NCBI GenBank assembly: GCA_019119845.1
Contig: DWWF01000002.1
Span: 13,374 to 77,373 of the forward strand
Source of the DNA: Candidatus Alistipes merdavium
GTDB taxonomy: Bacteria; Bacteroidota; Bacteroidia; Bacteroidales; Rikenellaceae
DNA: 64,000 bases
Direction: 5' to 3'
The first letter of the stretch is position 1, and each line of letters opens with the position of its first letter. The position numbers and the translations under genes were made by a program. Of this stretch, positions 3,921 through 57,485 are shown piece by piece. Below the pieces are notes generated by a model. The model had not been told where the DNA came from, did no database searches, and was given only the letters and a program-made list of their open reading frames with translations.

Positions 3921-4517
3921 ATTTGTATTGTCAATATCCTTTGCCGCCCGTGGCGGCACCACGAATCCGCACTCTCGTTTGACGCGGAAAAAGAGGGTGC
4001 GGGCTGCGGCGCGTCCGTCACGGGGTGGCACATAGGCCTGATCTTGCGCGCCCCGTGCAGCGCCGCGGCTCGCGCACTCCCGCGGAAAACGTCGTGCGGA
4101 GGCTTTTGGTACTTTTGGCCTCAAAAGTACATGAACAATCTTTTTTCTTTTCCTCTGCTTTTCGGTGGCGAAAAGCAGCAAAAAGCCTCTCGAAGTCCTT
4201 TTACGCCTTTCGGAAAAAACTCTTTTTTTCCCTGCTTTTCGATGGCGAAAAGCAGCAAAAGCCACCCGTCCGATTCCGATGTCGGCGTCCGGACGTCTGA
4301 AAGCGGCGTCGGGCGACTGCGCGGGTTTGCAAGCAAACCGTCCCCGCCGCTCTCGCTTTCAGCCCTCCGTCCGCTTCTCCGCCATCGGAACCAGGTCGGG
4401 ACCCGCCATGCGGGAGAAGAAGAGGTAATGGATATCGAGGTGCGTTGCCAAATAAAATAATGCCGCCCATGGCGGCACCACGAATCCGCACTCTCGTTTG
4501 ACGCGGGAAAAGAGGGG
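3921..4517 (+). repeat. Structured modular repeat array, locus 1 (linker tail, full unit 3942-4415, linker, partial unit 4461-4517)
   Basis: Near-identical to sequences at 49348-50092 (reverse) and 56047-57485; hairpins TGCCGCC-N3-GGCGGCA, GTACTTTTG-N4-CAAAAGTAC and CTGCTTTTCG-N4-CGAAAAGCAG (x2), plus a long nested stem at 4261-4415. Confidence 0.95.
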
Positions 4518-4616
4518 ACGGACCCTGCTTCCGCCGCCGAAAGTCCCGTTTCATACAGTCTCCCCACCGGACAAAAACAAAATGCCAAACCCCGGCAGAA
4601 ATTTTTCATCTGAAAA

Positions 4617-4648
4617 TTTGGTTTATAAAATAAACTACTTTATATTTG
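4617..4648 (+). promoter_or_regulatory. Promoter with palindromic operator in the spacer
   Basis: TTTG(4617-4620)-N20-TATATTTG(4641-4648); perfect GTTTAT-aaa-ATAAAC palindrome at 4621-4635. Confidence 0.65.
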
Positions 4649-4690
4649 CATCAGAAATACGAACCGAGCCCCGCTCACAAACCAAAAGCC

Positions 4691-4924
4691 ATGGAGACGA
4701 TACAAACTGCCCGTAACGACCGCCGCGCCCGATTCGCACGCAGCTTCGCGCGCAACGTCATTACCTATGCCGTAATCTGCGGATTCCTCACACTGGTCAA
4801 TGCCCTGACGTCGCCCCACTACTGGTGGGTAGCGTGGGTAGCCGGAGGCTGGGGCCTTGCCCTGCTGCTGCCCCTGCTCTTCCACCTGGTCGGTTGCGAC
4901 GAAGAGGAAGACGAGGCCAAATAA
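4691..4924 (+). CDS. Small 2TM-domain membrane protein
   Basis: ATG at 4691 downstream of the promoter; two hydrophobic helices, WWVAWVAGGWGLAL. Confidence 0.75.
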   Translation: METIQTARNDRRARFARSFARNVITYAVICGFLTLVNALTSPHYWWVAWVAGGWGLALLLPLLFHLVGCDEEEDEAK

Positions 4925-4954
4925 CCCGACACACAACACCCAATCCCCACCGCC

Positions 4955-5374
4955 ATGAAACGAATACTGACTTGTGCGGCCCTGCTGCTCGGCGCGGCGG
5001 CCGCAGCCGAAAATCCGAAAATCACGATTACGGGGCTGCGCTCCGACCGGGGGCTCGTCCTCTGGACTCTTCAGGGTGCGGACAACACGCACCGGCAGGG
5101 CATGGAACAACCCGCCGCCGGGCAGGCGGTCATCGAGCCCGGCCCGATCCGCGCCGACTCGGCCATGCTCTACGTGCTGCACGACGAAAACGGCAACTAC
5201 CGGCTCGACTGCCGCGACGACGGTACGCCGGATGAAGGGGTCGGTTCGTTCGTGATCCGCCGCGACGACCCCGCGGAGGAGATGTCTGTCGAACTCCGCT
5301 ACGATTTCGGCCCGAAGGCCGCGGACGGCACTCCCCAGCAGGCTTCCGCACCGCAACCCGGCAACGGGAAATAA
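4955..5374 (+). CDS. Secreted DUF2141-like protein
   Basis: Signal peptide; HDENGNYRLD...GTPDEGVG motif. Confidence 0.65.
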   Translation: MKRILTCAALLLGAAAAAENPKITITGLRSDRGLVLWTLQGADNTHRQGMEQPAAGQAVIEPGPIRADSAMLYVLHDENGNYRLDCRDDGTPDEGVGSFVIRRDDPAEEMSVELRYDFGPKAADGTPQQASAPQPGNGK

Positions 5375-5413
5375 CCGCAAACCCAACCCGCAAATTCCAA
5401 AACGCACCGCATA

Positions 5414-6067
5414 ATGGAAGAGAGAAAACTCGACGCGCAGGAGAGCATCGAACTCATCACGCGCATGATCCGCAACACGCGCCGGCGGCTCGAGCACAAC
5501 GCCGGACGCCCGTTCCTCGTCTGGGGCTACACCACCGTGGCAATCTCGCTGTTCAACTACCTTATGCGGATCAACGGGGCCGATCCCGAATGGTCGCTGA
5601 GCTGGTTTCTGATCCCCGTGCTCGGCGTGGTGCTGATGCGCCTTTTCCCCGCGAAAAAGAGCACCGAGCCCCGCACCGAGATCGACCGCATCGTCAACGC
5701 CCTGTGGCTCGTCTGCTCGCTGGCGCTCATCCCGATCTTCGTGATCTGCCTCTTCCACGGATGGCTCTACCGCACGAGCCTCTTCATGATGATCGCGCTC
5801 ACGATGGCAATCGGGACGGCCGCCACGGGACTGATCGTCCGCTCGAAGGTCTACGCCGTCAGCGGGCTGCTCGGCATGGCGCTCTCGACGCTCTTCGCCT
5901 TCAACGACTTCGCAATGAAGTCGCGGTTTGCGTCGCAGGCCGTTCCGGGGCAAGAGGGCTTCCTCGCGCTGCACAACGAGATTCTGATCTTTGCGGCGAT
6001 CTTCGTCGTCATGATGATCATCCCGGGGCACATCATCAACTACCAGAACCGCCGCGAAACGAAGTGA
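5414..6067 (+). CDS. Hypothetical multi-pass membrane protein
   Basis: About 6 hydrophobic helices; typical codon usage; in operon with the wHTH regulator. Confidence 0.75.
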   Translation: MEERKLDAQESIELITRMIRNTRRRLEHNAGRPFLVWGYTTVAISLFNYLMRINGADPEWSLSWFLIPVLGVVLMRLFPAKKSTEPRTEIDRIVNALWLVCSLALIPIFVICLFHGWLYRTSLFMMIALTMAIGTAATGLIVRSKVYAVSGLLGMALSTLFAFNDFAMKSRFASQAVPGQEGFLALHNEILIFAAIFVVMMIIPGHIINYQNRRETK

Positions 6068-6181
6068 CCATGCAGACCGCACGCCATACGGGTTCCCCGT
6101 CGGAACCCCGACAAACCCGCCTCGCCGCCCGAAGTCCGCATCCCGGGCCGGACGCTACAGCGAAGGCAAAACCGCACCGCC

Positions 6182-6469
6182 ATGTTCAGGGAGCTTAATC
6201 CGCTGCTGCACTCGGAGCTGCGGCTGGCCGTGATGTCGATCCTCATCGGGGTCGAAAACGCCGACTTCGTCTTCATCCGCCAGCAGACCGGCGCCACGGC
6301 CGGCAACCTCTCCGTGCAGCTGGACAAGCTGTCCCGGGCGGGCTACATCACCGTGGAAAAGACCTTCCGGGGCAAGATGCCCTGCACGGTCTGCCGCATC
6401 ACCGATGCGGGGCGCGACGCCTTTGCGGAGTATGTCGAGGCGTTGCAAAGCTACATCCGGCCGAAGTAA
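6182..6469 (+). CDS. Winged-helix transcriptional regulator (MarR/ArsR-like)
   Basis: LHSELRLAVMSIL...ATAGNLSVQLDKL..AGYI..EK motif. Confidence 0.85.
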   Translation: MFRELNPLLHSELRLAVMSILIGVENADFVFIRQQTGATAGNLSVQLDKLSRAGYITVEKTFRGKMPCTVCRITDAGRDAFAEYVEALQSYIRPK

Positions 6470-6520
6470 GGCCGCCGCGCGCGCCGACACGCACAGGCCC
6501 AGCCCGCGAACTCACGGGGC

Positions 6521-6633
6521 GAGGCCGCACGGATCGCGCGCGGAACGGAAGGGTCGCGAAAACCGTGCTCGGAGCCGAAAGAGGCCGCACGAATCGCGCG
6601 CGGAACGGAAGGGTCGCGAAAACCGTGCTCGGA
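6521..6633. repeat. 53-bp direct repeat, period 60, with degenerate continuation to about 6790
   Basis: gaggccgcacg(g/a)atcgcgcgcggaacggaagggtcgcgaaaaccgtgctcgga at 6521 and 6581, one mismatch. Confidence 0.9.
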
Positions 6634-6795
6634 ACGGAGGGAAGGCCGCAGAAATCACGCGCCGAACAGACGGGCCGCAGAGACCGCACGCGGAGCGGAA
6701 GGAGCCGCACGGATCGCCCCGAAGGGGCCGCGAGGGGCTTGAAGGGCCCGGAAACGCACGGAAGGGCCCCGCGGGAGGTGCGCCGCACGGAAAAA

Positions 6796-6835
6796 TTCGG
6801 GCCGGGGAGTATCGCACGATACTCCCCGGCCCGAA
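6796..6835. terminator. Long perfect hairpin between convergent genes (probable terminator)
   Basis: TTCGGGCCGGGGAGTATCG-ca-CGATACTCCCCGGCCCGAA, 19-bp inverted repeat. Confidence 0.7.
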
Positions 6836-6870
6836 CTGTTACAAAGGAACCCCGGAAAAGAAATCCCGGA

Positions 6871-9573
6871 CTACTGCTGCGCGCCGGATTCCGCCTCCAG
6901 CGTGAGTTTCTGAATCTGCTTCTCGGCCTCCTCCAGAAGTGCCTTGGACTGCTTTTTCGCCTCATCCACCAGGGCGTCGCCGGCCGCTTCGGCCGCGATC
7001 TTCGCCAGCGCCCCCTTCTTGGCCGCGGCATCGACGAGCTTCTGCCGCTGCGTCTCGGCCGCCTCGACGAGCTTTTCGCCCGCCCGCTGCGCCTCCTCGC
7101 GCAGGGCGGCTGCCCGCGTCTGCGTATCGTCCGAGAGCAGGCCGCCGCGGCCGCCCGTCAGGTTGTCTATCTGTTCCGAGACAACATTCGAGACCACCTG
7201 CTCGACCGTCTCCTGCACGCCCAGCGTGATCTTCGGCGAGGTGAACGTGCCGCCGATACCGACGTTGACCGCACCCAGCACGCCGCCCACACCGGCCGGA
7301 AGAGTCACCTTCGCCGTGTAGTCGATCGTCCGGTCGAGCCCCGTGGTGCCCGACATGTTGACATTCACGTCACCCATCTTCAGGTCGAAAGGCTCCGTGG
7401 TAACGCGCCCGTCCTTGATCGAGAAGCGGATCTTCAGATCGCGCGCCTCGATGCGGCGCAGCTTGTCGTTCTTCAGCAGGTCGGCCAGCTTGTCGAAGGC
7501 CTCGACCCCCTCCACGCTGACATTCTCGGAGCTGAGCTCGCCCTGCGCCGTCAGCGACATGAGGTCGGGCGACATCGCGGCATCGAGCGTCGTCCGCATG
7601 TCGATCGAGAGCGAATAGTCGCCGCTCGCCTTCTCGAAGATCGGCGCCAGCTGACGCACCGCCTCGATCTCCTCAAAGGTCCGGGGGAAGGAGGCCTTCG
7701 CGATCGAGGCCGCAAGCGAGAGGGTCGGATGCGCGGGATCGGCCGCCGTGGAGTAGCGTCCCGAGGCCGATGCCTTGCCGCCGAAGAGCTGCAACCCCAG
7801 CCGGTCGAGCGACAGCGTGCCGCCGGCTACGGACATCTCGCCCGCAATATCCGTAATGACCATCTTCTCGAAGAGCACCTTCTTCAGCTCGGCATTGAGC
7901 GAGAGATTCAGATTCTTCGGCACAACGATGGCCTGCGCGGGCGCCGCGGCGGCCTCTTCGGCCGGCTTCTCCGCTTCGGCGGACTCCGCTTCGGCGTCGG
8001 CGGGAACGGCCGCCCGGATTTCGTTCAGATCGAGCAGGTCGGACTTCACGTAGAGGCGGCCCGCAAGCTGCTCGCCGCGCATCAGGTACCCCAGGTAGCC
8101 CGTCAGCTGTCCGGTGGCCGACAGATCGCTGCCGCCCACCGTGACGCCGAACTCGCCCAGAGTCATGGCCTGCGGCGAGATCGTGGCGGCAGCCCGCCGG
8201 ATGAAGACCTCGGGCAGCTGCTGCACGTGCAGTCCGAGCTGCTCGACGACGAGCGATCCCGACGCCGAGATGCGCTCGTAGCGTCCGCTTTCGACGTCGG
8301 ACATGCGTCCCGAGAGTTTCATCGACGCTGCGATGCGGCCCGCCAGGTCGATCCCCTTCTCCAGCGGATAGACCTCGCGGATGGCCCCCAGATCGACCCG
8401 TCCGGAGAGCGTCGCCCGGAACGTGGGATCGCTCATGAGGTTCGTGGCGTAGCCCGTGGCCGAGAGGGAGTTGCCGGCCATCTTCAGACCGAATTCCGAG
8501 ATCTCAACCTCGGTCTTGTCCAGTTCGCCGCCCGCATTGGAGACCTTGGCCGCGATGTTGATGTCCGTCACGGCCTTCGGCAGCGAGGAGTACTGGAAGC
8601 TGCCGTTGTGCACCTCGGTCTTCAGCTCGAAGGCCGGGAGCTGCGCCCCGTGCATCTGGCCGCGCGCCCAGAGCTCCATCGAAAGCTCGCCCGACGCCGC
8701 CAGACTGCGGAATTCATGCTTGTAGAAGGCCGGGATGAGCGAGAGCAGGTCCTTGAAGCGAACCTCGCTGCATCCGGCACTGACGTCCATCGCCAGCGCA
8801 TCGCCGACCTGCTGCACCCAGCCGTCGAGACGCATCTCGATGGCATTCAGCCGCAGCGTGTTGCGCGAGAAGGTGAAGCGCCCCTCGGCCAGATCGGCAT
8901 CGATCTCGGCATCGAGGGCCAGCTCGGCGTCGTGCAGCAGCGGCACCCCGCCCTGCGTGAAGTCAACGCCCCCGGCCAGCAGGTCGAGATCGAGCTGTGT
9001 GCTTTCGGCCGACATGTCGCCCGAAAGACGCAGCGAGAGGGGTGCCGTCCGCAGCTCCATGCCCGTCGAGTCGTCCTCGTAGCGGATGACGGCATCCGTC
9101 AGGCGGAAGTCACGCACCGAAAGGCGGAACGACGACGGGGCGGACTCCTCCGCAGCGGTCGTGTCGGCCGGCTCCGAAGGCTTCATCACATCCCAGTTGA
9201 CCGCACCGTCGGCCAGCTTGTGCGCATGCAGGGCGGGCGAGGCGAGGATGATCTTGCGCACCTCGAAGCCCTCGTCGCCCACGAGCGACATGAGGTTCAC
9301 GACAACCGTAATGCGCCGGGCCGCAACGATCGTGTCGCCCTCGAAACGGTCCGTCCCGACGAGCGTCAGCCCCTTGAGGTTCAGCGACGCATTGGGAAAG
9401 TTGCGCAGCAGGCTGATGTCCAGCTTCTCGAAGTCGAGCCGTGCCGCCAGCATCGCATTGGCCTCACGCTTGACGATGTCGCCGATCTTGCCGCGCAGCA
9501 GCAGCGGCGTGACGATCGCCACCACCAGCACCACGGCCACCACCGTTGCCGTAATTTTCAGAAATCTCTTCAT
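6871..9573 (-). CDS. AsmA-family outer-membrane assembly/lipid-bridge protein
   Basis: N-terminal anchor helix, 900 aa beta-rich body, AsmA-like C-terminus (FSIKDGRVTTEPFDLK...GTTGLD). Confidence 0.85.
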   Translation of the reverse strand: MKRFLKITATVVAVVLVVAIVTPLLLRGKIGDIVKREANAMLAARLDFEKLDISLLRNFPNASLNLKGLTLVGTDRFEGDTIVAARRITVVVNLMSLVGDEGFEVRKIILASPALHAHKLADGAVNWDVMKPSEPADTTAAEESAPSSFRLSVRDFRLTDAVIRYEDDSTGMELRTAPLSLRLSGDMSAESTQLDLDLLAGGVDFTQGGVPLLHDAELALDAEIDADLAEGRFTFSRNTLRLNAIEMRLDGWVQQVGDALAMDVSAGCSEVRFKDLLSLIPAFYKHEFRSLAASGELSMELWARGQMHGAQLPAFELKTEVHNGSFQYSSLPKAVTDINIAAKVSNAGGELDKTEVEISEFGLKMAGNSLSATGYATNLMSDPTFRATLSGRVDLGAIREVYPLEKGIDLAGRIAASMKLSGRMSDVESGRYERISASGSLVVEQLGLHVQQLPEVFIRRAAATISPQAMTLGEFGVTVGGSDLSATGQLTGYLGYLMRGEQLAGRLYVKSDLLDLNEIRAAVPADAEAESAEAEKPAEEAAAAPAQAIVVPKNLNLSLNAELKKVLFEKMVITDIAGEMSVAGGTLSLDRLGLQLFGGKASASGRYSTAADPAHPTLSLAASIAKASFPRTFEEIEAVRQLAPIFEKASGDYSLSIDMRTTLDAAMSPDLMSLTAQGELSSENVSVEGVEAFDKLADLLKNDKLRRIEARDLKIRFSIKDGRVTTEPFDLKMGDVNVNMSGTTGLDRTIDYTAKVTLPAGVGGVLGAVNVGIGGTFTSPKITLGVQETVEQVVSNVVSEQIDNLTGGRGGLLSDDTQTRAAALREEAQRAGEKLVEAAETQRQKLVDAAAKKGALAKIAAEAAGDALVDEAKKQSKALLEEAEKQIQKLTLEAESGAQQ

Positions 9574-10010
9574 ATTTTCTCTCTTTTAAGGGTGAAGACC
9601 GAGGTCTCCGCCTCCACGAATCCCACTTTCCGATACAGGCTCCGGGCCGCCGTGCGGGCCGCCGACGAGGTGAGCATCACGCAGTCGGCCTCTTCCCGGC
9701 GCGCCCGTTCGAGCGCCGCACGCACCAGCGCCTCGCCCGCGCCGCTTCCGCGCGCCGCGGCATCGACGACCACATCCTCGATCCACGCCTTGCGGCCCGA
9801 GGGGGCGTCGTACCACGCCAGGGTCAGCATTCCGACGATGCGGCCGTCCTGCCGCGCAACGAGCAGCGCCGCCGCGGGCGACGCGCAGAGCCGCCGCAGC
9901 AGCCCGGCGGAGGGTGCGCACCGGTGCGCGGAGAGCTGCGGCATGAGCCGCGCGACCGCCTCGCACAGCGAGGGCGTGATCGCGATCTGTTCTTCCACGG
10001 TCGTTTCCAT
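9570..10010 (-). CDS. GNAT family N-acetyltransferase
   Basis: METTVEEQ...IEDVVVDAAARGSGAG acetyl-CoA motif; ATGA overlap with the asmA-like start; -7 box at 10037-10044. Confidence 0.85.
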   Translation of the reverse strand: METTVEEQIAITPSLCEAVARLMPQLSAHRCAPSAGLLRRLCASPAAALLVARQDGRIVGMLTLAWYDAPSGRKAWIEDVVVDAAARGSGAGEALVRAALERARREEADCVMLTSSAARTAARSLYRKVGFVEAETSVFTLKREKI

Positions 10011-10109
10011 CGCTTTCAGGTGCCTGCAATACATCGCAAAGATAATCTTTTTGGCGGAATTGCATGCACGAACGCGGCAATCTCGCAAAAAAAGGTTAAT
10101 TTTGCCCCG

Positions 10110-10282
10110 CGCAAGGTTCCGCAACGACGGCTTCCGACCGTCGGGATCAAAAGGGAATGCCGTGCGAATCGGCAACAGTTCCCGCTGCTGTGAGTTACAC
10201 CCTGCGTTCCGGCATCTCGGCCACTGTCCCCGCACGGGAACGGGAAGGCGCCGGAACGGTAACGAGTCAGAAGACCTGCCTA
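10110..10282 (+). ncRNA. Cobalamin riboswitch
   Basis: AGGTTCC...AAAAGGGAAtgccGTGcgAATC...CCCGCtgCTGTGA...GCCACTG...GGGAAGGC...AGTCAGAAGACCTGCC; TAATTTTG promoter at 10097-10104; upstream of B12-uptake genes. Confidence 0.93.
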
Positions 10283-10400
10283 CGGCGCCACGAAACGCAA
10301 CGCAACCCTGCGGAGAATGGGGTGACGCGCCCGCCGACGAGAACCGGCTCCGGTCACGTGCTCCCCGCTCCCCGCACCGAAACTGCCGAAACAACCCGCG

Positions 10401-11435: not shown

Positions 11436-11449
11436 AATACCGTCAAGCC

Positions 11450-12328: not shown

Positions 12329-12336
12329 CCGCAGCG

Positions 12337-15104: not shown

Positions 15105-15153
15105 TAGTATATTTGCATATATTTGCAACGACTGAAGACGAAACACCGACGCC

Positions 15154-15873: not shown

Positions 15874-15892
15874 TCCGACACGCCGTCCCGGA

Positions 15893-15940: not shown

Positions 15941-15965
15941 GCAACCGTCCGCCGCCGGGGCGCTA

Positions 15966-18046: not shown

Positions 18047-18190
18047 AGCTGCGGCCAAAGATACGAAAATTTATCACAATTCGCGCGCGCGGCGCCCGCT
18101 AATCCGCGCGGCAGGGCGCTGTTTACAATTTGTTCATTAAAAAAACGCGCCGCGGCTTGCCGATCCGCAAACTCTCCCTATCTTTGTCAC

Positions 18191-18360
18191 GGCAAGGTTC
18201 CCCGCCGGCGGCTGCCGGCACGGGATCAAAAGGGAACGCCTGTGCGAATCAGGGACTATTCCCGTAGCTGTGAGCTCCATGCGGGCTGCGCAATCTCAAC
18301 ATGCCACTGTCCCCCGGGACGGGAAGGCGCGCAGCGGGAGCGAGTCAGAAGACCTGCCTT
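18191..18360 (+). ncRNA. Cobalamin riboswitch upstream of nrdDG
   Basis: Same conserved blocks as 10110-10282 (AAAAGGGAA, CCCGtagCTGTGA, GCCACTG, GGGAAGGC, AGTCAGAAGACCTGCC); TATCTTTG at 18179-18186. Confidence 0.93.
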
Positions 18361-18529
18361 GCCGCGAAAGGGGCCCGCCTTCGGGATGTAGGGCGACTCC
18401 GGAACTTTTTGACTGGCAACACATATTTTCACGTCAGAGGCATTCCCTCTCTGTCCGCTGCCGGATGGAGAGGCGAAGACGGGGAACGCCCGCACCGAAG
18501 ACACAGAACAAAAAAACACTGGGATAACC

Positions 18530-35182: not shown

Positions 35183-35275
35183 CGGTGCCGACACGGCAGG
35201 CCAACCGATATGACAGGCAGAGCCGGAAGGTCGGTGCCGCACGGCAGGCCAACCAGATATGACAGGCAGAGCCGG
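35183..35275. repeat. 44-bp tandem duplication
   Basis: cggtgccg(a)cacggcaggccaacc(a)gatatgacaggcagagccgg at 35183 and 35232. Confidence 0.85.
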
Positions 35276-35652
35276 GAGCTCCCCGAAAGGGACTTCCGGC
35301 TCGCTTTGCTGTTTCCATACCGGCGGGAGCGGCCGGCGGCAGGAGGCCCGGACGACGCTGACGGCAGTGTCGGCGGCGCATCCGAAAAGCCCCTGCCGGG
35401 GATGCAATCTTCCGATTATTGCACCGCAACATGTTGCCGATCGGGAAACTTTGTATATCTTTGTCCTGTGAAAAAGTCGGAATCCGGAGGCGCACCAGAG
35501 CCCTGACGCCCTCCGCACCCCGGACCGACGACTCTCCGAAAACGATTTGCGACGGCCCGGGGAATCTGTGCGAAGTTGCGTCACTTCATCATTTTGAATT
35601 CTTCAGCATACGGGTCGTCGCAATCTTTGTTTGCTCCGGCAAAAAGCGTGCC

Positions 35653-40895: not shown

Positions 40896-42872
40896 ATGAG
40901 AAGCTTGATTTTGGGAGTGCTTGCCTTCACTCTAATTCTGCCATTTACGGCAACCGGTCAGCATAGCGATAAAAGCAACAGAGTTTTTTGGGATGGCGGA
41001 ACAATACCGGACAACAGGTTCCGGGAATATGTATTGATCAATTTTGACACAGACCATAACGGAACCATAGACCAGACTGAAGCTGATGCTGTTACTGAAA
41101 TGCGTCTTAATCCGTTAGTCATAAATGAAGACAAGACAAAACCGGAAATTACTTCTCTGCAGGGGATAAGTTATTTTCAGAATCTTGAAACCTTAATGCT
41201 TACGAGCAATGAAATCAAACTTACAGACTTATCATATCTCTCACAGAACGGTAAGCTTAAACAGCTTGCTATCGATAATTCGGAGCTGTTAACCCAGCTC
41301 GACCTTTCCGTTGTTCCAACATTAGAAAGGTTTATCTACACCGGGACAAAACTCAAATCTTTAATTCTGGATAATCCGGAGTTGAAAGAAGCATATTTGT
41401 ACAACGATGATTGGAAAGGAGAAGGGCATAGCGGTCTTACTCAACTTGATTTTTCCGCACGCACCACAAATTTGGAGACACTGGATATCAGCGATAATTT
41501 CATTACCAAGATAGATCTCTCCCATTTAGTGAATTTGAAAAAGGTTTCCATTTCCTGCAAAAATCTTTCATCTCTAAATCTTCCGGCCAGTCTGAAGTTG
41601 ACCGAATTAGCGTATTGGGGCAAAACGAAGTTTCCGGGAAATCTTGCCGATTTCCCGAATCTAACACGACTTTCCATTAGAGGTGTGGAAACGCCTTTGG
41701 ATTTATCCAAGAACTCCAAACTGAAAGATCTGGACTGTTCATACAACGGACTGACGAGACTCGATGTGTCCGTTCTTCCCGATTTGGAGAAGCTGGTGTG
41801 TGATGGGAACGAACTTGTATCTTTGGATTTATCCAGGAATCCCAGGCTGAAAGAGTTGGAGTGTTCAAATAACAAATTACCGGAACTCGACGTGTCGGCT
41901 CTTCCCGATTTGGAGAAATTAAAATGCAAGTGGAATGCCATTACATCTTTAGACCTGTCCCAAACTACCAAACTGGTAGAATTAGACTGTTCAAATAACA
42001 AATTGACGAGCCTCGATATCTCACGCTGTCCAGCAATCAAAGATGTAAGATTAGGCTTCAATAATTTGACAGAATTCAATTTTTCGCATACAGAACTGGA
42101 GAACCTCAATAGCCGGGGAGCCTTCAAATCATCAAATCTGACTTTCTACGACGGAAATGCTATAGCAGACTATATGATAGACTGTTGGGTGTTTACCGGA
42201 GCTGCAGAGCCCAAACAGATCGACGGAGAGGCCAACAGAAACCTGCTTCAGTCAATACGGGATTACAAAAGAGATATCGCCGCCAAAGAACATGTTGCAG
42301 CCGAAGAACAACGAGCCAAGGCTCATCGTATGGCCGCAGAATATAAAAGGCAGATTATGCCATACATAACAAGCAACGACTGGAATGAGGCGGACAAAAT
42401 CGCAGCCGAGGCACTCTACAACCTGCCGGAAGGAGATGCCTTTCTCTACTATGTCAGAGCAAAGGCGTATTATCTGAACAATCTCGACTTTGAGGTGGAG
42501 GATAGCGAAAATATGACCGATTATTTCAAGGCATACCGCAGAGAGGCGGAACATTTGGCTGAACTCTGCCGTAAATCCATCACATGCGACCCATCTGACG
42601 GCAATGAAGCCTATTTTTACAGAGGGCTCGCATATATCGTGTTAGGAAGGGCTAATGACGCAGCAAATGACTTTATGCGATGTGCGAGAGGAAACGAATC
42701 TATCAAAGCAGTCTGTTACTACAATATAGGCATAGCATATAAAAATGCCGGGCGGTACAATGCGGCTCTCGATCAATTCAAAAATGCCCGCCAATACTTT
42801 TCCGATGCAGACAATAAAGAACGGTGCCTCAGAAAGATAAAAGAGTGCCAGCAAAAGATTAGCGGCAAATAA
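40896..42872 (+). CDS. Low-GC secreted leucine-rich-repeat protein with C-terminal TPR domain
   Basis: Signal peptide; IPDNRFREYVLINFDTDHNGTIDQTEA cap; LxxLxCxxNxLxxLDLS repeats; TPR (AYFYRGLAY, YYNIGIAY..AGRY..A); TATATTTG at 40866-40873. Confidence 0.85.
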   Translation: MRSLILGVLAFTLILPFTATGQHSDKSNRVFWDGGTIPDNRFREYVLINFDTDHNGTIDQTEADAVTEMRLNPLVINEDKTKPEITSLQGISYFQNLETLMLTSNEIKLTDLSYLSQNGKLKQLAIDNSELLTQLDLSVVPTLERFIYTGTKLKSLILDNPELKEAYLYNDDWKGEGHSGLTQLDFSARTTNLETLDISDNFITKIDLSHLVNLKKVSISCKNLSSLNLPASLKLTELAYWGKTKFPGNLADFPNLTRLSIRGVETPLDLSKNSKLKDLDCSYNGLTRLDVSVLPDLEKLVCDGNELVSLDLSRNPRLKELECSNNKLPELDVSALPDLEKLKCKWNAITSLDLSQTTKLVELDCSNNKLTSLDISRCPAIKDVRLGFNNLTEFNFSHTELENLNSRGAFKSSNLTFYDGNAIADYMIDCWVFTGAAEPKQIDGEANRNLLQSIRDYKRDIAAKEHVAAEEQRAKAHRMAAEYKRQIMPYITSNDWNEADKIAAEALYNLPEGDAFLYYVRAKAYYLNNLDFEVEDSENMTDYFKAYRREAEHLAELCRKSITCDPSDGNEAYFYRGLAYIVLGRANDAANDFMRCARGNESIKAVCYYNIGIAYKNAGRYNAALDQFKNARQYFSDADNKERCLRKIKECQQKISGK

Positions 42873-42900
42873 GGAGAAAAACAATTTGCAGAACCAGTCA

Positions 42901-47272: not shown

Positions 47273-47284
47273 GGTCGTAACGGA

Positions 47285-48094: not shown

Positions 48095-48117
48095 GGCGTA
48101 TGGTTCTTTTTTGAGGG

Positions 48118-48456
48118 TTAATTTTCGGGTTTGCCGTGGCGGATCACCTGAATCTGCCCGACGAGTTCCTCCCACGCGGCGTCGAGCGTCGCCAGGTATT
48201 CACGGCCCTTGTCCGTGAGGGTGTAGTATTTGCGGGGCGGCCCCTGCGGGGACTCCTCCCAGCGGTAGGTGAGCAGCCCGGCATTCTTCTGCCGGGTGAG
48301 GATCGGGTAGAGCGTACCCTCGACTACGATCATCTCGGCCTGTTTGAGCTCGGCGATGATCTTCGGAGCATACGACGCCTCGCGCGAAAGTATGGCGAGG
48401 ATGCAATACTCCAGGATTCCCTTGCGCATCTGCGCTTTTACGTTGTCTTCAGCCAT
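48118..48456 (-). CDS. padR: PadR-family transcriptional regulator
   Basis: KGILE..IL, Y...I, EGTLYPIL.R, GPPRKYY.LT..G. Confidence 0.92.
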   Translation of the reverse strand: MAEDNVKAQMRKGILEYCILAILSREASYAPKIIAELKQAEMIVVEGTLYPILTRQKNAGLLTYRWEESPQGPPRKYYTLTDKGREYLATLDAAWEELVGQIQVIRHGKPEN

Positions 48457-48460
48457 AATG

Positions 48461-48667
48461 CTATTCGTTTAACCGTTGCGGGGCCTTGGGCACGATCAGC
48501 CAGAGGATGATGTACACCCAGAGCGAAAGGCCGCCGGCGAGGATCAGGATCAGGGTCATCAGCCGGACGAGCGAGACGTTGAGTCCGAAAAACTCGGCGA
48601 CGCCGCCGCACACGCCGGCCACGATGCCGTCCCGGGTTCTGTAAAGACGATTGTTGTTCGTTTGCAT
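48461..48667 (-). CDS. pspC: Minimal PspC-domain protein
   Basis: RLYRTRDGIVAGVCGGVAEFFG...YIILWLIVP. Confidence 0.88.
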   Translation of the reverse strand: MQTNNNRLYRTRDGIVAGVCGGVAEFFGLNVSLVRLMTLILILAGGLSLWVYIILWLIVPKAPQRLNE

Positions 48668-48680
48668 GGTCTTATCGTTT

Positions 48681-49217
48681 TTATTGTTTTTTGTCGTTGC
48701 CGTTGAATGAGAACCGCCGTGCGGGCTCCTCGGGAATGACGATCCAGAGGATGATGTAGATCCAGATGGAGATGCCGCCGAAGAGGATCAGCAGGAGCGT
48801 CACCAGACGAATCATCGTCGGGTCGGCGTCGAAAAATTCGCCAATGCCGCCGCAGATGCCGGCAATCGAGCGGTTCGTGCGCGAGCGGTAGAGACGGCGC
48901 CGCTCCGGCTCCGCGTCGGTTGGACTCTCACCTGCGCTCGCCGTCCGCGTCCCGTTGCGCGGCTCGCCGAAGTCGGAGGGCTCGCCCATCTGCGCCATCG
49001 CCGCATGCACCACGTCGAGCGTGATGACCCGCATGGGCGAGGAGACCCGTTCACGGAAAATCTCCGCCATCCGGGCTTCGATGTCGTTCATCGTCTCCGT
49101 ATCGCCCTCGGGCAGCCGGTTGCGGATGTCGTCGAAATAGCTCCGCAAGGCAAAATAGGCATCTTCGTCGAGCGTGAATGCCACGGAACCGATGTTCACG
49201 TTTACTGTCTCTTTCAT
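48681..49217 (-). CDS. PspC-domain protein
   Basis: N-terminal DIEARMAE domain plus RLYRSRTNRSIAGICGGIGEFF PspC motif. Confidence 0.88.
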   Translation of the reverse strand: MKETVNVNIGSVAFTLDEDAYFALRSYFDDIRNRLPEGDTETMNDIEARMAEIFRERVSSPMRVITLDVVHAAMAQMGEPSDFGEPRNGTRTASAGESPTDAEPERRRLYRSRTNRSIAGICGGIGEFFDADPTMIRLVTLLLILFGGISIWIYIILWIVIPEEPARRFSFNGNDKKQ

Positions 49218-49273
49218 GGTTGCAAAGGTATTTTTCGAGTCAATATTTTGTGGGTTCTACTACTTTCACAGCG

Positions 49274-49310
49274 CAAATATAATACACATTTTAGTATTAT
49301 GCAATACAAA
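49274..49310 (-). promoter_or_regulatory. Promoter of the PspC/PadR operon with candidate PadR operator
   Basis: TATATTTG -7 box (49274-49281) and GTATT-N4-AATAC palindrome (49294-49307) over the -33 region; second TACCTTTG at 49223-49230. Confidence 0.45.
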
Positions 49311-49347
49311 GTACCTATTTTTTTTGATTTTTTTATATGCTGTCCCT

Positions 49348-50092
49348 CCCCGACTTGGTTCCGATGGCGGGAAAGCGGCCGGAGGGCTGAAAGCGACAGC
49401 GGCGGGGACGGTTTGCTTGCAAACCCGCGCAGTCGCCCGACGCCGCCTTCAGTCCTCCGGACGCCGACATCGGAATCGGTCGGGTGGCTTTTGCTGCTTT
49501 TCGCCACCGAAAAGCAGTTAAAATAAAAAAGAGTTTTTCATGTACTTTTGGGGCCAAAAGTACCAAAAGCCTCCGCACGTCGTTTTCCGCGGGAGTGCGC
49601 GAACCGCGGCGCTGCACGGGGCGCGCAAGATCAAGCCTATGCGCTACCCCGTGACGAACGCGCCGCAGCCCGCACCCTCTTTCTCCGCGTCAAACGAGAG
49701 TGCGGATTCGTGGTGCCGCCAACGGCGGCATTATTTATATGGCAATGCGCTTCGGATGCCCGTATCAACTTACTTTTTCTGAAATCTCCACCCGGTAGTG
49801 CGTTTCTTTTGGTTTCCCGCAAGGCGGGTCCCGATTTGGTTCCGATGGCGAGAAAGCGGACGGAGGGCTGAAAGCGACAGCGGCGGGGACGGTTTGCTTG
49901 CAAACCCGCGAATAGTCGCCCGACGCCGCTTTCAGTCCTCCGGACGCCGACATCGGAATCGGTCGGGTGGCTTTTGCTGCTTTTCGCCACCGAAAAGCAG
50001 AGAAAAAAGTTTTTTCAGACGTTTTCTCCGGAAGCCGAAAAAGGACGTCGAGAGGCTTTTTGCTGCTTCTCGCCACCGAAAACAAAAAAAAG
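49348..50092 (-). repeat. Structured modular repeat array, locus 2 (partial unit 50092-49815, linker, full unit 49730-49348)
   Basis: Reverse complement of the element at 3942-4415 and 56365-57350. Confidence 0.95.
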
Positions 50093-50135
50093 CCCCCAGA
50101 CAATCAACAAAGAATACTATCCTGCCGCAAGGCTC

Positions 50136-51050
50136 CTACGCCTTCGATTTGCCGCGCAAACAGTCTCCGAGCAGTCCGTAGCTGATCTCGCGCCGCATCA
50201 GCAGCAGCCACCGCGCCTTGCGCGGCGACATGGTCAGGGCAAGCAGCAGTGTAACACCCCACTTCGCCGCCTCCGACAGCAGCGCCCCCACATAGCGGCA
50301 CCGTTTGCAGGCCTGCATGCGCTGGCTGACACCGACATTGTAGCACAGGCGCCGGAAATACCCTTCGGTGAGCTTCTCGGGCGGGATGATATGCCAGATT
50401 ACGGCATCGGGGACATACCACAGCGTCACGCCGCCCCGCACAAGCCGTGCAAAGAAATCGGTCTCCTCACCGCCGATCGGACGGTCGTTCGTGCGCCCGA
50501 GCGAGGGGTCGAATCCTCCGTAGGGGGCCACTTCCAAACGACGGAAAGCCATGTTTCCGCCTCCGGGAATCTTTCCGCGGGGATAGGGCCGCACGTCGGG
50601 GCCGAAATCCATCGGATTGGCGATCGGCTTTTCGGTATACTTCGACATCCACACCGGGCGTCCGGCAGGATACTCGGCGATGATGCGCCCCCCGGCGACC
50701 AGCGCCTCGGGATGCGCATCGAAAAAGTCGACGTAGGCCCGCATGTACCCGGGATTGATCCGCTCGTCGTCGTCGATGATCGCCACGACGGGTGCCGCGG
50801 CCTCGGCCACACCGCGGTTGCGGGCGGGCGAGACCCCGGGGCGGAATTCGTCGACAAGGCGGAGCCGGCACGCGGAGTGCGCCGCGGCGAAGGCCTCGAA
50901 ACATGCCGGCGTATCGTCCGTCGAATTGTTGTTCACGACAATGCACTCCCACTCCGCAGCGGGCAGATCCTGCCGCACGACGGACTCCAGGGTCACAAGA
51001 AGCTGCGCCGCACGATTGTGCGTCGCGATGATGAGCGAAAGACGAATCAT
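50136..51050 (-). CDS. Glycosyltransferase family 2
   Basis: IIATHNR, VNNNSTD, RNRG, IIDDD, GGEETD. Confidence 0.9.
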   Translation of the reverse strand: MIRLSLIIATHNRAAQLLVTLESVVRQDLPAAEWECIVVNNNSTDDTPACFEAFAAAHSACRLRLVDEFRPGVSPARNRGVAEAAAPVVAIIDDDERINPGYMRAYVDFFDAHPEALVAGGRIIAEYPAGRPVWMSKYTEKPIANPMDFGPDVRPYPRGKIPGGGNMAFRRLEVAPYGGFDPSLGRTNDRPIGGEETDFFARLVRGGVTLWYVPDAVIWHIIPPEKLTEGYFRRLCYNVGVSQRMQACKRCRYVGALLSEAAKWGVTLLLALTMSPRKARWLLLMRREISYGLLGDCLRGKSKA

Positions 51051-51114
51051 TATGCGAATATAGCAAATTATCCGTAAAAACCGCTATCTTTGCGGGGAAA
51101 GAACCAAAAACCAC

Positions 51115-53298: not shown

Positions 53299-53322
53299 AT
53301 AGGGCTGCAACCACCACGACAG

Positions 53323-53356
53323 AAGGAGCGGATGTTCGGTACATTCGCTCCTTTTT
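53323..53356 (+). terminator. Terminator after dsbD
   Basis: AAGGAGCGGATGT-tcggt-ACATTCGCTCCTT followed by T's. Confidence 0.75.
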
Positions 53357-53449
53357 CGTATATTTGCCATGCGCGCCCCGACTCGCCGCCGACCGCGGAG
53401 CATACGCCCGCAAGGCAGGCATCCCGACGCAGAGAAAAACCGACCGAAA

Positions 53450-55228
53450 ATGAAGAGATCCTATCTTTGGCTCCTGTGCCTCGCACTGGCAGGCGCATGC
53501 AGCGGATGCACGGAGACCTATCCGACCTACTCCACGGAATACAACCTGGATTTCGAGTACGCCCTAAACGACAGCGTGCCGGCGCAATGGACGCTGCGCA
53601 ACACGTCGCTCACCGGATACGAGTATGCGCTCGACCGGCAGACCGTGCACCACGGTGCGGCGAGCCTTCGGGCCCGATGGAGCGAACGGATAACCCTGCC
53701 GGGCAGCTGGGGCGGATTCCAGACCTTCCTCTCCGCCGGGCAGGCCGCAGGGCGGGAGGTCGAGATCAGCGGCTGGATCAAAACCCGCGACAGCGTGAAC
53801 CTGCGTGCCGGATTCGGCATTTTCCCCTTCGTGCCCGACCGTACCCCGATGGATTTTCTGTCGCGGATCGACACGACGGGCGGTGTCCGGGGCACCTCCG
53901 ACTGGAGGCGCTGCACGACCCGGATGAAGATCGACAGCGCCGCGACCTGCATCATGATCGCCGGCTTTGCCTCGGGTGTGGGGAGCGTCTGGTTCGACGA
54001 TCTGGAGATCCGCATCGACGGCAAACGAATCGCCGAACGGGAGATTCCGCTCGTCGACAAACTGTCGCCCGCCGACCGGCAGGCGCTGCTGCGCTATGTC
54101 CATCCGTTCGCGACCTGGGACCCGACGGCTCCGGACACGGACGACCTCGACGCCCTCGGACAGGCGGCGACCGGATGCCGGATCGTCGGGCTGGGTGAGA
54201 ACACGCACGACACCGGCGAGGTGTTTGCCATGAAGGACCGCATAGTCCGCTACCTGACAGACCGCCACGGATTCGGCATCTTCGCGCTGGAGGCCAATCT
54301 GCCCGAGGCAGAGCGGGTAAACGACTACACGATCCGCGGGGAGGGCGACCCGAAACAGCTGATCCGGGGGATGTACGTCTGGCCCTGGATGACCGACGAG
54401 ATGCTGACGATGGTCGAGTGGATGAAGACCGTCAACACGCCGGAGCCCCGCATCACCTTCACGGGGGTCGATCTGCAGATGCCCACCACGCTGATGGCTG
54501 CGTTGCAGCGGCTGCTGCCCGCATCGGGATCGGCCGCACGCCGGGCTGCCGCGCTGGCGGAGCAGCTGCAACATATTTACACCCGATCCTACCAACTGGA
54601 TGTCGAACTGGCCCGGAAACTCGAACCCGAGCTGGATGCGCTGGCCGCCGACAGCGACCTGGCATCGCTGTCCGGGGAGAAACGCACCGAGATCGGAGGA
54701 TACATCGACATGCTGCGCGCCTTTCTGAGCCAGTACCGCGACCCTTCGTGGCGGGACCGGGGCATGGCCGGGACCATGGCGTGGATCATGGCCCTCCACC
54801 CGGAGTCGCGGGCGGTTCTCTGGGCACACAACCAGCACATCAACCAGCGCGAGGGAACGACAAGGCTGATTCGTCCGACCGGATACTACCTCAAGCAGCA
54901 ATTCGGGGACGGCTACCTCTCCGTCGGCTTCGTAACCGGCCAGGGCACCTATACGGCCTGGAAAAACGGTCTCCGGGCCTTTGAACTCCCGGTTCCGGCA
55001 CCCGGCACGCTGGAGCATGTGCTCGGACAACTCGACGAGCCGATCTTCCTGCTCAACCTGAAACGGATGCGGCAGGAGCAGGCGCCCCAGCTGCAATGGC
55101 TCGACGCGCTGTCGTTCCGCGAGATCGGCGCCACGCCCGAGGTATTCTACTACACGGGCATCTCCGAAGCGTTCGACTGTCTGATCTTTATCCGAAACAC
55201 CTCGGCTTCGCACCTGCTGCAATTCTGA
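53450..55228 (+). CDS. Erythromycin-esterase (Ere/Bcr136)-family lipoprotein with N-terminal galactose-binding-like domain
   Basis: Lipobox; VGLGENTH, FALEAN, FTGVD, RD.GMA, WAHNQH motifs. Confidence 0.82.
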   Translation: MKRSYLWLLCLALAGACSGCTETYPTYSTEYNLDFEYALNDSVPAQWTLRNTSLTGYEYALDRQTVHHGAASLRARWSERITLPGSWGGFQTFLSAGQAAGREVEISGWIKTRDSVNLRAGFGIFPFVPDRTPMDFLSRIDTTGGVRGTSDWRRCTTRMKIDSAATCIMIAGFASGVGSVWFDDLEIRIDGKRIAEREIPLVDKLSPADRQALLRYVHPFATWDPTAPDTDDLDALGQAATGCRIVGLGENTHDTGEVFAMKDRIVRYLTDRHGFGIFALEANLPEAERVNDYTIRGEGDPKQLIRGMYVWPWMTDEMLTMVEWMKTVNTPEPRITFTGVDLQMPTTLMAALQRLLPASGSAARRAAALAEQLQHIYTRSYQLDVELARKLEPELDALAADSDLASLSGEKRTEIGGYIDMLRAFLSQYRDPSWRDRGMAGTMAWIMALHPESRAVLWAHNQHINQREGTTRLIRPTGYYLKQQFGDGYLSVGFVTGQGTYTAWKNGLRAFELPVPAPGTLEHVLGQLDEPIFLLNLKRMRQEQAPQLQWLDALSFREIGATPEVFYYTGISEAFDCLIFIRNTSASHLLQF

Positions 55229-55265
55229 ATCCGGGCCGCATGCCCCGCTCCGCCGGTCGGCCGCG

Positions 55266-55961
55266 CTACTTTCCGCCGAACAGCGCGGAGGTGATCTCCA
55301 GCGGCCGCGAGGCGTCGAACCAGATCTGCGGAGCGGTGTAATATTCGCTGCTCTCGGTCAGATCAAAGACGTCGCACGTACCGACCAGACGCTGGGCGTC
55401 GTACCGCCACAGCTCGAGGTAATAGCGCATGAAGCAGTATTCGTCGCTGACCTTCGTCACGCAGAACGGGTGTTCCTCGCTGCCGTTTCCCGTCCAGGCA
55501 ATCGCCCCCAGCGCCCGGATTCCCCGGTTGTAGAAGAGCTGCCCTTCGTCGCGCGTGCGGGACTCGTCGCCCGACTCGAGCATGCCGGCAATGGCGTATG
55601 CCGCCATGAAAAGCGCCTCGGCATGCACCGAATTGATCGCCAGCACCTCCTCGGCCAGCGCCAGCGCCTCGGCATAGCGCCCCGCGCGATAGGCCTCGTA
55701 CATATCATGAACCTTGGGCTCCTCGCTGTCGTTGGTCAGCAGCGACTGCCCGAAAAAGGCGACGATCTTCTCCTGCACGGTCAGGGTCGTATCGCGTTCA
55801 GGGGCGGAGAGCCTCCGCACCAGCTCACGAACCCGTTCGGGGTCCTTTTTGACAATGGAGCGAATCTCTTTCCAGTCTACCGGGAAAATCTCTTGCTGCG
55901 CATGGGCAGCGAAGCCGCAGAAAAGCAGCAGCAACGACAGGATGAGTGTTTTGGTTCTCAT
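55266..55961 (-). CDS. Secreted TPR-like protein (DUF4919-like)
   Basis: Signal peptide; TGNGSEEHPF.V..VSDEY motif. Confidence 0.7.
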   Translation of the reverse strand: MRTKTLILSLLLLFCGFAAHAQQEIFPVDWKEIRSIVKKDPERVRELVRRLSAPERDTTLTVQEKIVAFFGQSLLTNDSEEPKVHDMYEAYRAGRYAEALALAEEVLAINSVHAEALFMAAYAIAGMLESGDESRTRDEGQLFYNRGIRALGAIAWTGNGSEEHPFCVTKVSDEYCFMRYYLELWRYDAQRLVGTCDVFDLTESSEYYTAPQIWFDASRPLEITSALFGGK

Positions 55962-56046
55962 AACGGGTTGTTTTAGGTTGGAACATACTGTGAACACCCG
56001 GCGGCCGGGTGTGACTTTCCGAAAATCTCGCGAACATTCAGTTCTG

Positions 56047-57485
56047 AAAAACTTTTTTCTCTGCTTTTCAGCGGCGAAAAGCAGCAAAAGCCCCCGAAGT
56101 CCTTTCCTCTTTTCAGAAAAGTGCCAAAAAACTTTTTTCCCTGCTTTTCGGTGGCGAAAAGCAGCAAAAGCCACCCGACCGATTCCGATGTCGACGTCCG
56201 GACGCCTGAAAGCGGCGTCGGGCGACTGCGCGGGTTTGCAAGCAAACCGTCCCCGCCGCTCTCGCTTTCAGCCCTCCGGCCGCTCTTTCGCCATCGGAAC
56301 CAAGTCGGGACCCGCCATGCGGGAAAAAAGAGTGCCGGAGCGCATGCCATATAAATTATTATACTGCCGCCTCCGGCGGCACAGTAATTCCGCACTCTCG
56401 TTCGACGCGGAAAAAAGAGGGTACGACACGCGGCGCGTCCGTCACGGGGTGGCGCTAAGGCCTGATCTTGCGCGCCCCGTGCAGCGCCGCGGCTCGCGCA
56501 CTCCCGCGGAGAACGACGTGCGGAGGCTTTTGGTACTTTTGGCCCCAAAAGTACATGAGAAAACTTTTTCTTTTTCTCTGCTTTTCGGCGGCGAAAAGCA
56601 GCAAAAGCCACCCGACCGATTCCGATGTCGGCGTCCGGACGCCTGAAAGCGGCGTCGGGCGACTGCGCGGGTTTGCAAGCAAACCGTCCCCGCCGCTCGC
56701 GCTTTCAGCCCTCCGGCCGCTCTTTCGCCATCGGAACCAAGTCGGGAATCACCTTGCGGAAAAAAATGGAGTTGCGAGGGTGGTTGGTTTTGCGAAACAA
56801 AAGTGACACGCAGCCGGAGGCGGGCAGGAAAAGTAAGCTGGAACGGGCTTCCGAGGCGCATTGCCATGTAAAATAAACAATGCCGCCGTTGGCGGCACCA
56901 CCAATCCGCACTCTCGTTTGACGCGGAAAAAGAGAGGGCGGGCTGCGGCGCGTCCGCCACGGGGTGGCGCATAGGCTTGATCTTGCGCGCCCCGTGCAGC
57001 GCCGCGGATCGCACGCTCCCGCGGAAAACGACGTGCGGAGGCTTTTGGTACTTTTGGCCCCAAAAGTACACGAGAAAACTTTTTCTTTTTCTCTGCTTTT
57101 CGGTGGCGAAAAGCAGCAAAAAACCTCTCGAAGTCCTTTTGCAGCTTCCGGAAAAACTCTTTTTTCTCTGCTTTTCGGTAGCGAAAAGCAGCAAAAGCCA
57201 CCCGACCGATTCCGATGTCGACGTCCGGACGCCTGAAAGCGGCGTCGGGCGACTGCGCGGGTTTGCAAGCAAACCGTCCCCGCCGCTCTCGCTTTCAGCC
57301 CTCCGTCCGCTCTTTCGCTATCGGAACCAAGTCGGGGATCGCCTTGCGGGGTAAAAAATAAAGCACACGTTACCGAAACGTATTTGTCTTTATTTATCCT
57401 TTGCCGCCCGTGGCGGCACCACAAATCCGCACTCCCGCGGAGAACGACGTGCGGAGGCTTTTGGTACTTTTGACCCCAAAAGTAC
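56047..57485 (+). repeat. Structured modular repeat array, locus 3 (partial unit 56061-56323, full units 56365-56760 and 56881-57350, internally deleted unit 57402-57485)
   Basis: Direct repeats visible in the sequence; same module order as loci 1 and 2. Confidence 0.97.

Follow-up and report, generated by a model that had tools for sequence, protein, structure and literature searches.

The window analysed here is a stretch of 64,000 nucleotides, positions 13374-77373 of contig C1 in the genome of an uncultured Alistipes of the chicken gut (Candidatus Alistipes merdavium, G000 below; assembly of 2.32 Mb in 34 contigs). It contains three intergenic arrays of palindromic repeat units, which we regard as probably representing an undescribed REP/BIME-like family of extragenic palindromic mosaics. 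Each unit comprises two long imperfect hairpins, which we call Rod1 and Rod2, together with the short accessory hairpins A, G, C and E and an AT-rich linker. The arrays lie where the first-pass annotation of this DNA had placed them, as both repeat finding and direct reading confirm (positions are those of the window unless a contig is named).

3921-4517, + strand: array 1, with linker, A, Rod1, G, C, C, Rod2, E, linker, and A plus a truncated Rod1 start
49347-50092, - strand: array 2, which read on the - strand has a degenerate C, then C, Rod2, E, linker, A, Rod1, G, C, Rod2
56047-57494, + strand: array 3, with C, C, Rod2, E, two full units, and A plus a Rod1 start fused to a Rod1 end, then G

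Array 1 follows a small + strand gene whose last position is 3901, and the next gene, likewise on the + strand, begins near 4692. Array 2 is bordered by a GT2 glycosyltransferase gene (50139-51050, - strand) and a PspC-domain gene (48684-49217, - strand), and array 3 by a DUF4919 gene (55269-55961, - strand) and a tRNA (57630-57702, - strand). The three loci of the window hold 4 Rod1 and 6 Rod2 copies, which matches the four full and four partial units counted in the first pass. The genome-wide copy number, which that annotation had proposed to establish, came to six loci in model searches, of which C1 carries three, C8 two and C4 one; together they contain 9 Rod1 and 12 Rod2 copies. Linker types recur between different loci, and the flanking genes in this genome are ordinary: mnmA, fabG-like and glyA-like genes in addition to the glycosyltransferase, PspC-domain, DUF4919 and tRNA genes already named.

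Architecture of the repeat unit

The cyclic order A, Rod1, G, C (one or two copies), Rod2, E and a variable AT-rich linker holds in all six arrays of G000, and every copy keeps the fixed order from A to Rod2 that had been noted earlier. Rod1 is a 141-nt imperfect hairpin with the apical loop AGGCCTGATCTT, Rod2 is a 142-nt imperfect hairpin with the apex GGTTTGCAAGCAAACC, and the accessory hairpins are 13-24 nt long. Rod2 is the rod of about 150 nt (module D) of the first description, and what had been noted there as a separate A2 stem and module B is better read, from the consensus fold, as a single long-range hairpin, the 141-nt Rod1. The copies in the window, found with model R2 for Rod1 and model R1 for Rod2, are as follows.

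3964-4104, + strand: Rod1, model R2, 162.6 bits
49568-49708, - strand: Rod1, model R2, 166.5 bits
56387-56528, + strand: Rod1, model R2, 150.5 bits
56903-57043, + strand: Rod1, model R2, 164.6 bits
4261-4402, + strand: Rod2, model R1, 167.4 bits
49347-49488, - strand: Rod2, model R1, 170.3 bits
49828-49971, - strand: Rod2, model R1, 164.7 bits
56170-56311, + strand: Rod2, model R1, 169.4 bits
56607-56748, + strand: Rod2, model R1, 172.9 bits
57197-57338, + strand: Rod2, model R1, 167.1 bits

A half-unit of approximately 200 bp consists of a short GC hairpin (A or E), an imperfect rod of approximately 140 nt and an AT-stem hairpin (G or C), the last two meeting at the junction CTTTTGG/CAAAAGCC. 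The 450-530 bp unit is a pair of such half-units, diverged in sequence and facing each other head to head, and these doublets are then arranged in tandem. The reverse complement of A-Rod1-G aligns with C-Rod2-E at a score of 111.5 (shuffled sequences, 77.8 +/- 7.3; forward orientation, 81), and searches with the Rod2 model pick up Rod1 as well, on the opposite strand, so that the unit is to be read as an inverted doublet; because the doublets are tandemly repeated, consecutive rods alternate in orientation. Similarity between the half-units is best at the head, where GTACTTTTGGGGCCAAAAGTAC-CAAAAGCC-TCCGCAC corresponds to CTGCTTTTCGGTAGCGAAAAGCAG-CAAAAGCC-ACCCGAC, and in the predicted fold GGCUUUUG (after Rod1) would pair with CAAAAGCC (before Rod2), closing the centre of the doublet. 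The earlier remark that terminal inverted repeats are lacking overlooks that the unit is itself an inverted doublet.

The same parts are found in other arrangements in related genomes. A solo half-unit lies between two genes in G062, the counterpart spacer in G000 being 83 bp, and in G332 and G011, two single-contig genomes that are 99% complete and have 8-13 rods, the rods are arranged in inverted pairs or in short arrays that repeat every 460 bp or so, with paired inverted rods also in G173. The base of the rods is conserved (CCGCAYUCUCG ... CGACRUGCGG), the middle helix of approximately 20 bp is hypervariable yet complementary, and the apex is of one of two types, the loop AGGCYUGAUCUU or the palindrome GGTTTGCAAGCAAACC. 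Rods are modular: one copy in G113 combines a Rod1-type base with a Rod2-type apex.

In the last partial unit of array 3 (57402-57485), the Rod1 start (CCGCACTC) is joined straight to the Rod1 end (CCCGCGGAGAACGACGTGCGGAGG); the junction is a deletion between two CGCACTC[TC]CG motifs present in each Rod1, and is a sign of recombination within the repeat. Other small palindromic repeat families are interleaved with the rods in G153 (L057), G173 (L055) and G332 (L104-L106), for example CCGGCTTAAGAAGCCGG followed by TTTTAGGGGCG, ATTCCCGCGAAAGCGGGAAT, and GTCATTCCCCGCTTGACGGGGAATCCA, and the intergenic clusters in these genomes are mosaics of several repeat families. The accessory hairpins of the window, located by landmark patterns, are listed below.

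3942-3958, + strand: A hairpin, TGCCGCC-N3-GGCGGCA
4461-4477, + strand: A hairpin
49714-49730, - strand: A hairpin
56365-56381, + strand: A hairpin
56881-56897, + strand: A hairpin, terminator-like on the - strand, with a T-rich tail
57402-57418, + strand: A hairpin
4109-4130, + strand: G hairpin, GTACTTTTG-N4-CAAAAGTAC
49542-49563, - strand: G hairpin
56533-56554, + strand: G hairpin
57048-57069, + strand: G hairpin
57464-57485, + strand: G hairpin
4155-4178, + strand: C hairpin, CTGCTTTTCG-N4-CGAAAAGCAG
4232-4255, + strand: C hairpin
49494-49517, - strand: C hairpin
49977-50000, - strand: C hairpin
50063-50085, - strand: C hairpin, degenerate, at the array edge (direct reading and landmark pattern)
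56061-56084, + strand: C hairpin
56141-56164, + strand: C hairpin
56578-56601, + strand: C hairpin
57093-57116, + strand: C hairpin
57168-57191, + strand: C hairpin
4402-4414, + strand: E hairpin, a short GC hairpin after Rod2 and the counterpart of A
49816-49828, - strand: E hairpin
56311-56323, + strand: E hairpin
56748-56759, + strand: E hairpin, weakened copy
57338-57349, + strand: E hairpin

Compensatory change in the rods

The 494-nt unit folds at -227.9 kcal/mol (z = -8.2) on one strand and at -230.2 kcal/mol (z = -5.8) on the other, relative to shuffled sequences. Covariation, whose counts are inflated because the alignments are model-fitted and include some reverse-strand rows, is evident in both rods: among 45 distinct Rod2 sequences from approximately 22 genomes, 87.8% of cells are paired compared with 36-48% in slid controls, both sides have changed in 45 of 47 pairs and none of 500 shuffles attained the observed pairing values, and among 33 Rod1 sequences the corresponding figures are 88.7%, 35-46% and 49 of 52 pairs. 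Direct reading of the sequences likewise reveals many types of pair at each position, and complementarity in the hypervariable helix. The rods are maintained as hairpins by compensatory change, and the pattern demonstrates selection for hairpin pairing on either strand; with such covariation in both rods, structural conservation goes beyond chance, as the first reading had supposed. In the forward-strand rows, mismatches in Rod2 are nearly symmetric, with 53 G-U and 49 A-C.

Repeats of this kind could also be functionless satellite-like DNA or an assembly artefact, in which a chance palindrome was amplified by slippage or duplication and kept complementary by template-switch "quasipalindrome correction", with no effect in cis. 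The arrays do vary in unit number and are partly homogenised, their pairs are nearly all Watson-Crick with symmetric mismatches, as templated correction would yield, and both G000 and its sister species G362 are metagenome assemblies. However, the rods of different species conserve asymmetric bulges, internal loops and a 14-nt apical loop, and since templated correction would erase these, they argue against mere "palindrome correction". In addition, numerous independent DNA runs, as well as genomes assembled independently, contain the same arrays, they persist at orthologous sites in species with MnmA only 82-89% identical, and they are depleted from divergent promoter spacers. We consider this explanation highly improbable.

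Position behind genes and transcription

For 32 loci from G000 and its relatives, the flanking genes are co-directional at 21, convergent at 9 and divergent at 2 (one quarter of loci would be expected to be divergent); that is, 30 of the 32 lie behind gene 3' ends. Relative to co-directional neighbours, Rod2 has the same orientation in 9 cases and the opposite one in 7.

Metatranscriptome contigs show that two of the arrays are transcribed together with the genes upstream of them. At array 1, a contig of run X25 at the depth of the upstream gene (183) extends 161 nt into the array, and depth in the same run is 0 over 4478-4832, just past the array. At array 2, a contig of run X26 leads out of the glycosyltransferase gene and reaches the first C hairpins; beyond the array, at 49137-49318, the depth in X25 is 0. 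The repeat-to-flank depth is 10-31x in the RNA runs X25, X26 and X28, compared with 5-9x in DNA runs, where the RNA runs are unstranded assembled contigs of metagenomes and the repeat depth sums all copies. A scan for sigma-70-type promoters gave 0 sites, with a model that does not cover the promoters of Bacteroidota. The hairpins would act in cis in either orientation, most likely forming structures of the 3' untranslated region that stop or protect transcripts, and their conserved apices may be bound by a host protein.

The first-pass annotation had also thought of a structured RNA family. The structure is indeed conserved, but the near-symmetry of G-U and A-C mismatches and the random orientation weaken the RNA part of that proposal. 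If the repeats were genes for structured non-coding RNAs, the rods or whole units would be stable RNAs acting in trans, with the tandem copies as duplicated genes, which would suit the very strong covariation, the conserved single-stranded apical loops, a modest G-U excess in Rod1 and a Rod2 RNA depth in X25 that is approximately 10-13x that of the upstream mRNA, corrected for DNA copy number. However, both strands fold equally well, G-U and A-C mismatches of Rod2 are about equal in number and orientation relative to neighbouring genes is random, which points to a palindrome on either strand rather than to a one-strand RNA gene. Within one unit, Rod1 and Rod2 are homologues that face opposite ways, so one transcript would carry one sense and one antisense rod. 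In addition, no promoter-like or terminator-like signals bound the unit, transcripts come in from the upstream gene, copy number ranges from 1 to 15 per genome, and the family is missing from most Alistipes and has no Rfam match. An RNA gene family is thus, in our view, quite improbable.

Distribution, turnover and known repeat systems

Within the Rikenellaceae, carriers belong to one group of Alistipes and to a single neighbouring genus. Rod2 was found in 22 of 151 sampled genus genomes, with 1 to 15 copies each, and in 2 of 31 genera of the Rikenellaceae, and Rod1 in 13 of the 151 genomes. Identity to the nearest copy within a genome is 94-98%, compared with an average of approximately 56% between genomes across the genus.

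In the sister species G362, where flank DNA is 86-96% identical, all six G000 loci are present, and Rod2 numbers differ at locus 1 (three in G362, one in G000), locus 3 (one and three) and the C4 locus (two and three). Copies in a tree of 22 Rod2 sequences, with moderate branch support, group mostly by genome and not by locus (locus 3 excepted), which indicates gene conversion between arrays. Variants in two other strains at the left edge of array 1, in which 3919 is joined to 4146 (X9, X11) or to 4221 (X25), represent a half-unit insertion or deletion (indel). At greater distances, the array behind mnmA is common to G173 and probably G153, with G011 having one near the same site, array 1 is common to G110 and G141, and orthologous sites persist across the species with MnmA only 82-89% identical. 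Many sites filled elsewhere are element-free in G000, the spacers there ranging from overlapping to approximately 230 bp, so that the earlier expectation of loci gained or lost between species is borne out; in these filled-versus-empty comparisons the species are too diverged for base-resolution junctions or target duplication to be read. Distant shared sites, empty G000 sites and changes in unit number together indicate that loci turn over slowly and array content fast. Current change would proceed by unequal crossing-over and by ectopic gene conversion between arrays, and new loci would be seeded only rarely.

Larger differences between the genomes were also observed at the arrays. A segment of approximately 10 kb between the two C8 arrays (C8:51425-52409 and C8:62325-62927) is inverted relative to G362 contigs C12 and C24 (L232, L235), with both breakpoints inside arrays; this could be real recombination between repeats or a mis-join in one metagenome assembly. 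At window positions 53369-56030 (C1:66742-69403), a 619-aa open reading frame (ORF) and the DUF4919 gene are absent from G362 (L230), where a one-Rod2 array abuts the homologue of C1:66751 downward. The difference amounts to an indel of 2.65 kb with the array at its boundary, and here too both genomes are metagenome assemblies. In the complete genome of G011 (L050, G011:C1:2751500-2757500), two Rod2-Rod1 clusters in inverted orientation flank a 2.5-kb pair of genes for an NhaC-like antiporter and a HAD phosphatase; their G000 counterparts (C1:82-84 kb) are free of arrays.

The earlier view of an unannotated, non-coding family agrees with our searches. A comparison of the arrays with Rfam 15, as proposed in the first pass, gave no family at gathering score and no significant E-value, with chance-level miRNA-type matches only at E <= 10, and phage and plasmid sequences had no match to the repeats. 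The apex motif was not found in the literature searched, including the first 200 of the 408 supplement files of a human-microbiome RNA-motif survey. A coding function was considered and rejected: ORFs crossing the arrays have no Pfam match, and the copies differ by frame-breaking indels of 1-2 nt.

The annotation had further proposed a mobile element mobilised in trans. Mobilisation by an HUH/RAYT enzyme is contradicted, since PF01797 (Y1/HUH, including RAYT) is absent from G000 and from 21 other carriers, complete genomes included, while control genomes did contain it, TnpB (PF07282) is absent, and IS110, absent from G000 and G362, is found in 5 of 19 carriers and 3 of 15 non-carriers with no correlation with the repeats. 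The statement that no enzyme gene lies nearby holds for the flanks examined in G000 and its relatives, and when flanking ORFs of approximately 70 loci were clustered in search of a recurrent neighbour protein family, only orthologous neighbours recurred. A "master" copy beside one gene was also sought in genomes with a single Rod1; these sites are orthologous to arrays elsewhere and have no gene in common. Of the mobile-element claim itself, the gain and loss of loci between species stands, but the comparison of G362 with G000 gives changes in unit number, conversion and rearrangement, with no new insertions.

An actively transposing non-autonomous element of REPIN-, PATE- or MITE-like kind (MITE, miniature inverted-repeat transposable element), with rods as single-stranded DNA folds for an enzyme encoded elsewhere in the genome and moved by cut- or copy-and-paste, would account for the REPIN-like inverted doublet and for rods whose base and apex are conserved while the middle helix covaries freely, the pattern that recognition by structure would produce. 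It would also agree with multiple dispersed copies in 22 of 151 genus genomes, with many sites filled in one species that are tight empty spacers in G000, with high similarity within a genome and with the half-unit indel between strains. On the other hand, G000 and 21 other carriers lack Y1/HUH, TnpB is absent, IS110 does not track the repeats, only orthologous neighbours recur beside the repeats, all six loci are common to G362 with no new site, target duplication and defined termini are not readable, and no phage or plasmid copies were found. Active transposition is rather unlikely on this evidence. A related idea, unlikely in our judgement, is that the rods are substrates of a hairpin-recognising protein, either a non-RAYT recombinase or nuclease or a host RNA- or DNA-binding factor, which would read the apices (GGTTTGCAAGCAAACC and the AGGCYTGATCTT loop) and the conserved base and ignore the middle helix. 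If true, this would be the first RAYT-independent REPIN-like system, with units several times the size of any REP, in Bacteroidota.

We return to the reading as a REP/BIME-like mosaic, for which our data demonstrate a modular alternating architecture, co-transcribed positions behind genes, loci that are conserved but vary in unit number, partial homogenisation within genomes, slow gain and loss of loci and the absence of RAYT. REP/BIME elements are clusters of REP (or PU) hairpins of 20-40 bp in E. coli and other Enterobacteria, and the comparison with REP, BIME and REPIN made in the first pass is apt. Like BIMEs, the Alistipes arrays are extragenic and lie behind 3' ends, with alternating palindromes, recurring linkers and variable cluster size, and they are co-transcribed with the upstream gene and form species-specific families. 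Unlike BIMEs, which are smaller by a factor of about five, their main palindrome is a rod of approximately 140 nt (only the accessory A, G, C and E hairpins fall in the REP range of 20-40 bp), and they occur without RAYT, at low copy number (approximately 6 loci per genome) and in a Bacteroidota host. A GTAG or CGTC tetranucleotide at the palindrome foot is described as the RAYT recognition tag by Di Nocera et al. (PMC3733652). In contrast, the feet in aligned Alistipes copies are TGCCGCC, CCGCAC, GTAC, CTGC and CCCGAC, none of them GTAG or CGTC. Likeness to REPIN-RAYT systems lies in the inverted doublet, the largely vertical inheritance, the long persistence at orthologous sites and the separate sequence population of each genome, whereas none of the 22 carriers tested has the single-copy Y1 RAYT gene that defines those systems, the halves now represent two diverged rod types that differ in their apices, and the doublets are tandemly arrayed.

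ERIC/IRU elements are imperfect palindromes of approximately 127 bp in Enterobacteria and Vibrio; they are likewise single long imperfect hairpins of similar length, intergenic, transcribed and in either orientation, with compensatory stem change and no known transposase. However, there is no sequence relation between them and the Alistipes rods, which come with two small flanking hairpins, doublets, tandem arrays and a hypervariable middle helix. PATEs derived from IS200/IS605 have subterminal hairpins served by TnpA (Y1), often with TnpB, whereas PF01797 and PF07282 are both absent in the present case. A MITE from a DDE insertion sequence has terminal inverted repeats and a target-site duplication; in Alistipes each rod is an inverted repeat throughout, and the species compared are too diverged for a duplication to be read.

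Several observations weigh against a REP/BIME-like family that acts in cis behind genes and changes by recombination. In the forward-strand rows of Rod1, G-U outnumber A-C mismatches by 31 to 14 after removal of one constant G-U column, and this modest excess may leave room for a role of the + strand at the RNA level. Some of the 32 loci that underlie the depletion from divergent spacers are orthologous, so the effective sample is smaller than 32. In run X30 the repeat-to-flank depth is approximately 2x, meaning that the repeats do not exceed the prediction from DNA copy number, and because the RNA contigs are unstranded and depth is summed over copies, they show transcription but neither its strand nor its locus. 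The hairpins lack the U-tract of a classical intrinsic terminator, and a terminator scan gave 3 sites compared with 4.7 expected from shuffles, the terminator-like sites being - strand A hairpins (two overlapping calls at one copy) and a short stem near 57426-57441. Finally, a description of change as "mainly recombinational" covers only what two sister species showed.

The window also contains features apart from the arrays. Two cobalamin riboswitches (RF00174) lie 8 kb apart on the + strand, at 10111-10297 (96.8 bits) and 18178-18375 (103.4 bits). Three tandem copies of a GC-rich unit of 58-61 nt, 72-95% identical, are found at 6521-6699 in or beside a long ORF. Two-copy duplications are also present: tandem ones at 35183-35280 (49 nt) and 41695-41946 (126 nt), and a dispersed one at 48473-48863 (147 nt).

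Much work has been done on repeated extragenic palindromes in Proteobacteria, and their spread there is explained by the REP-RAYT partnership. For the Bacteroidota, a dominant phylum of the gut, we know of few such repeats that have been described. The Alistipes arrays indicate that a BIME- or REPIN-like architecture can exist without RAYT and with far larger hairpins, which raises the questions of what creates these repeats and what reads them. In practical terms, the arrays break metagenome assemblies, and they are candidate breakpoints for the inversion of approximately 10 kb and the 2.65-kb indel between the sister species. For the organisms that carry them, the arrays may set the 3' ends and the stability of neighbouring mRNAs.

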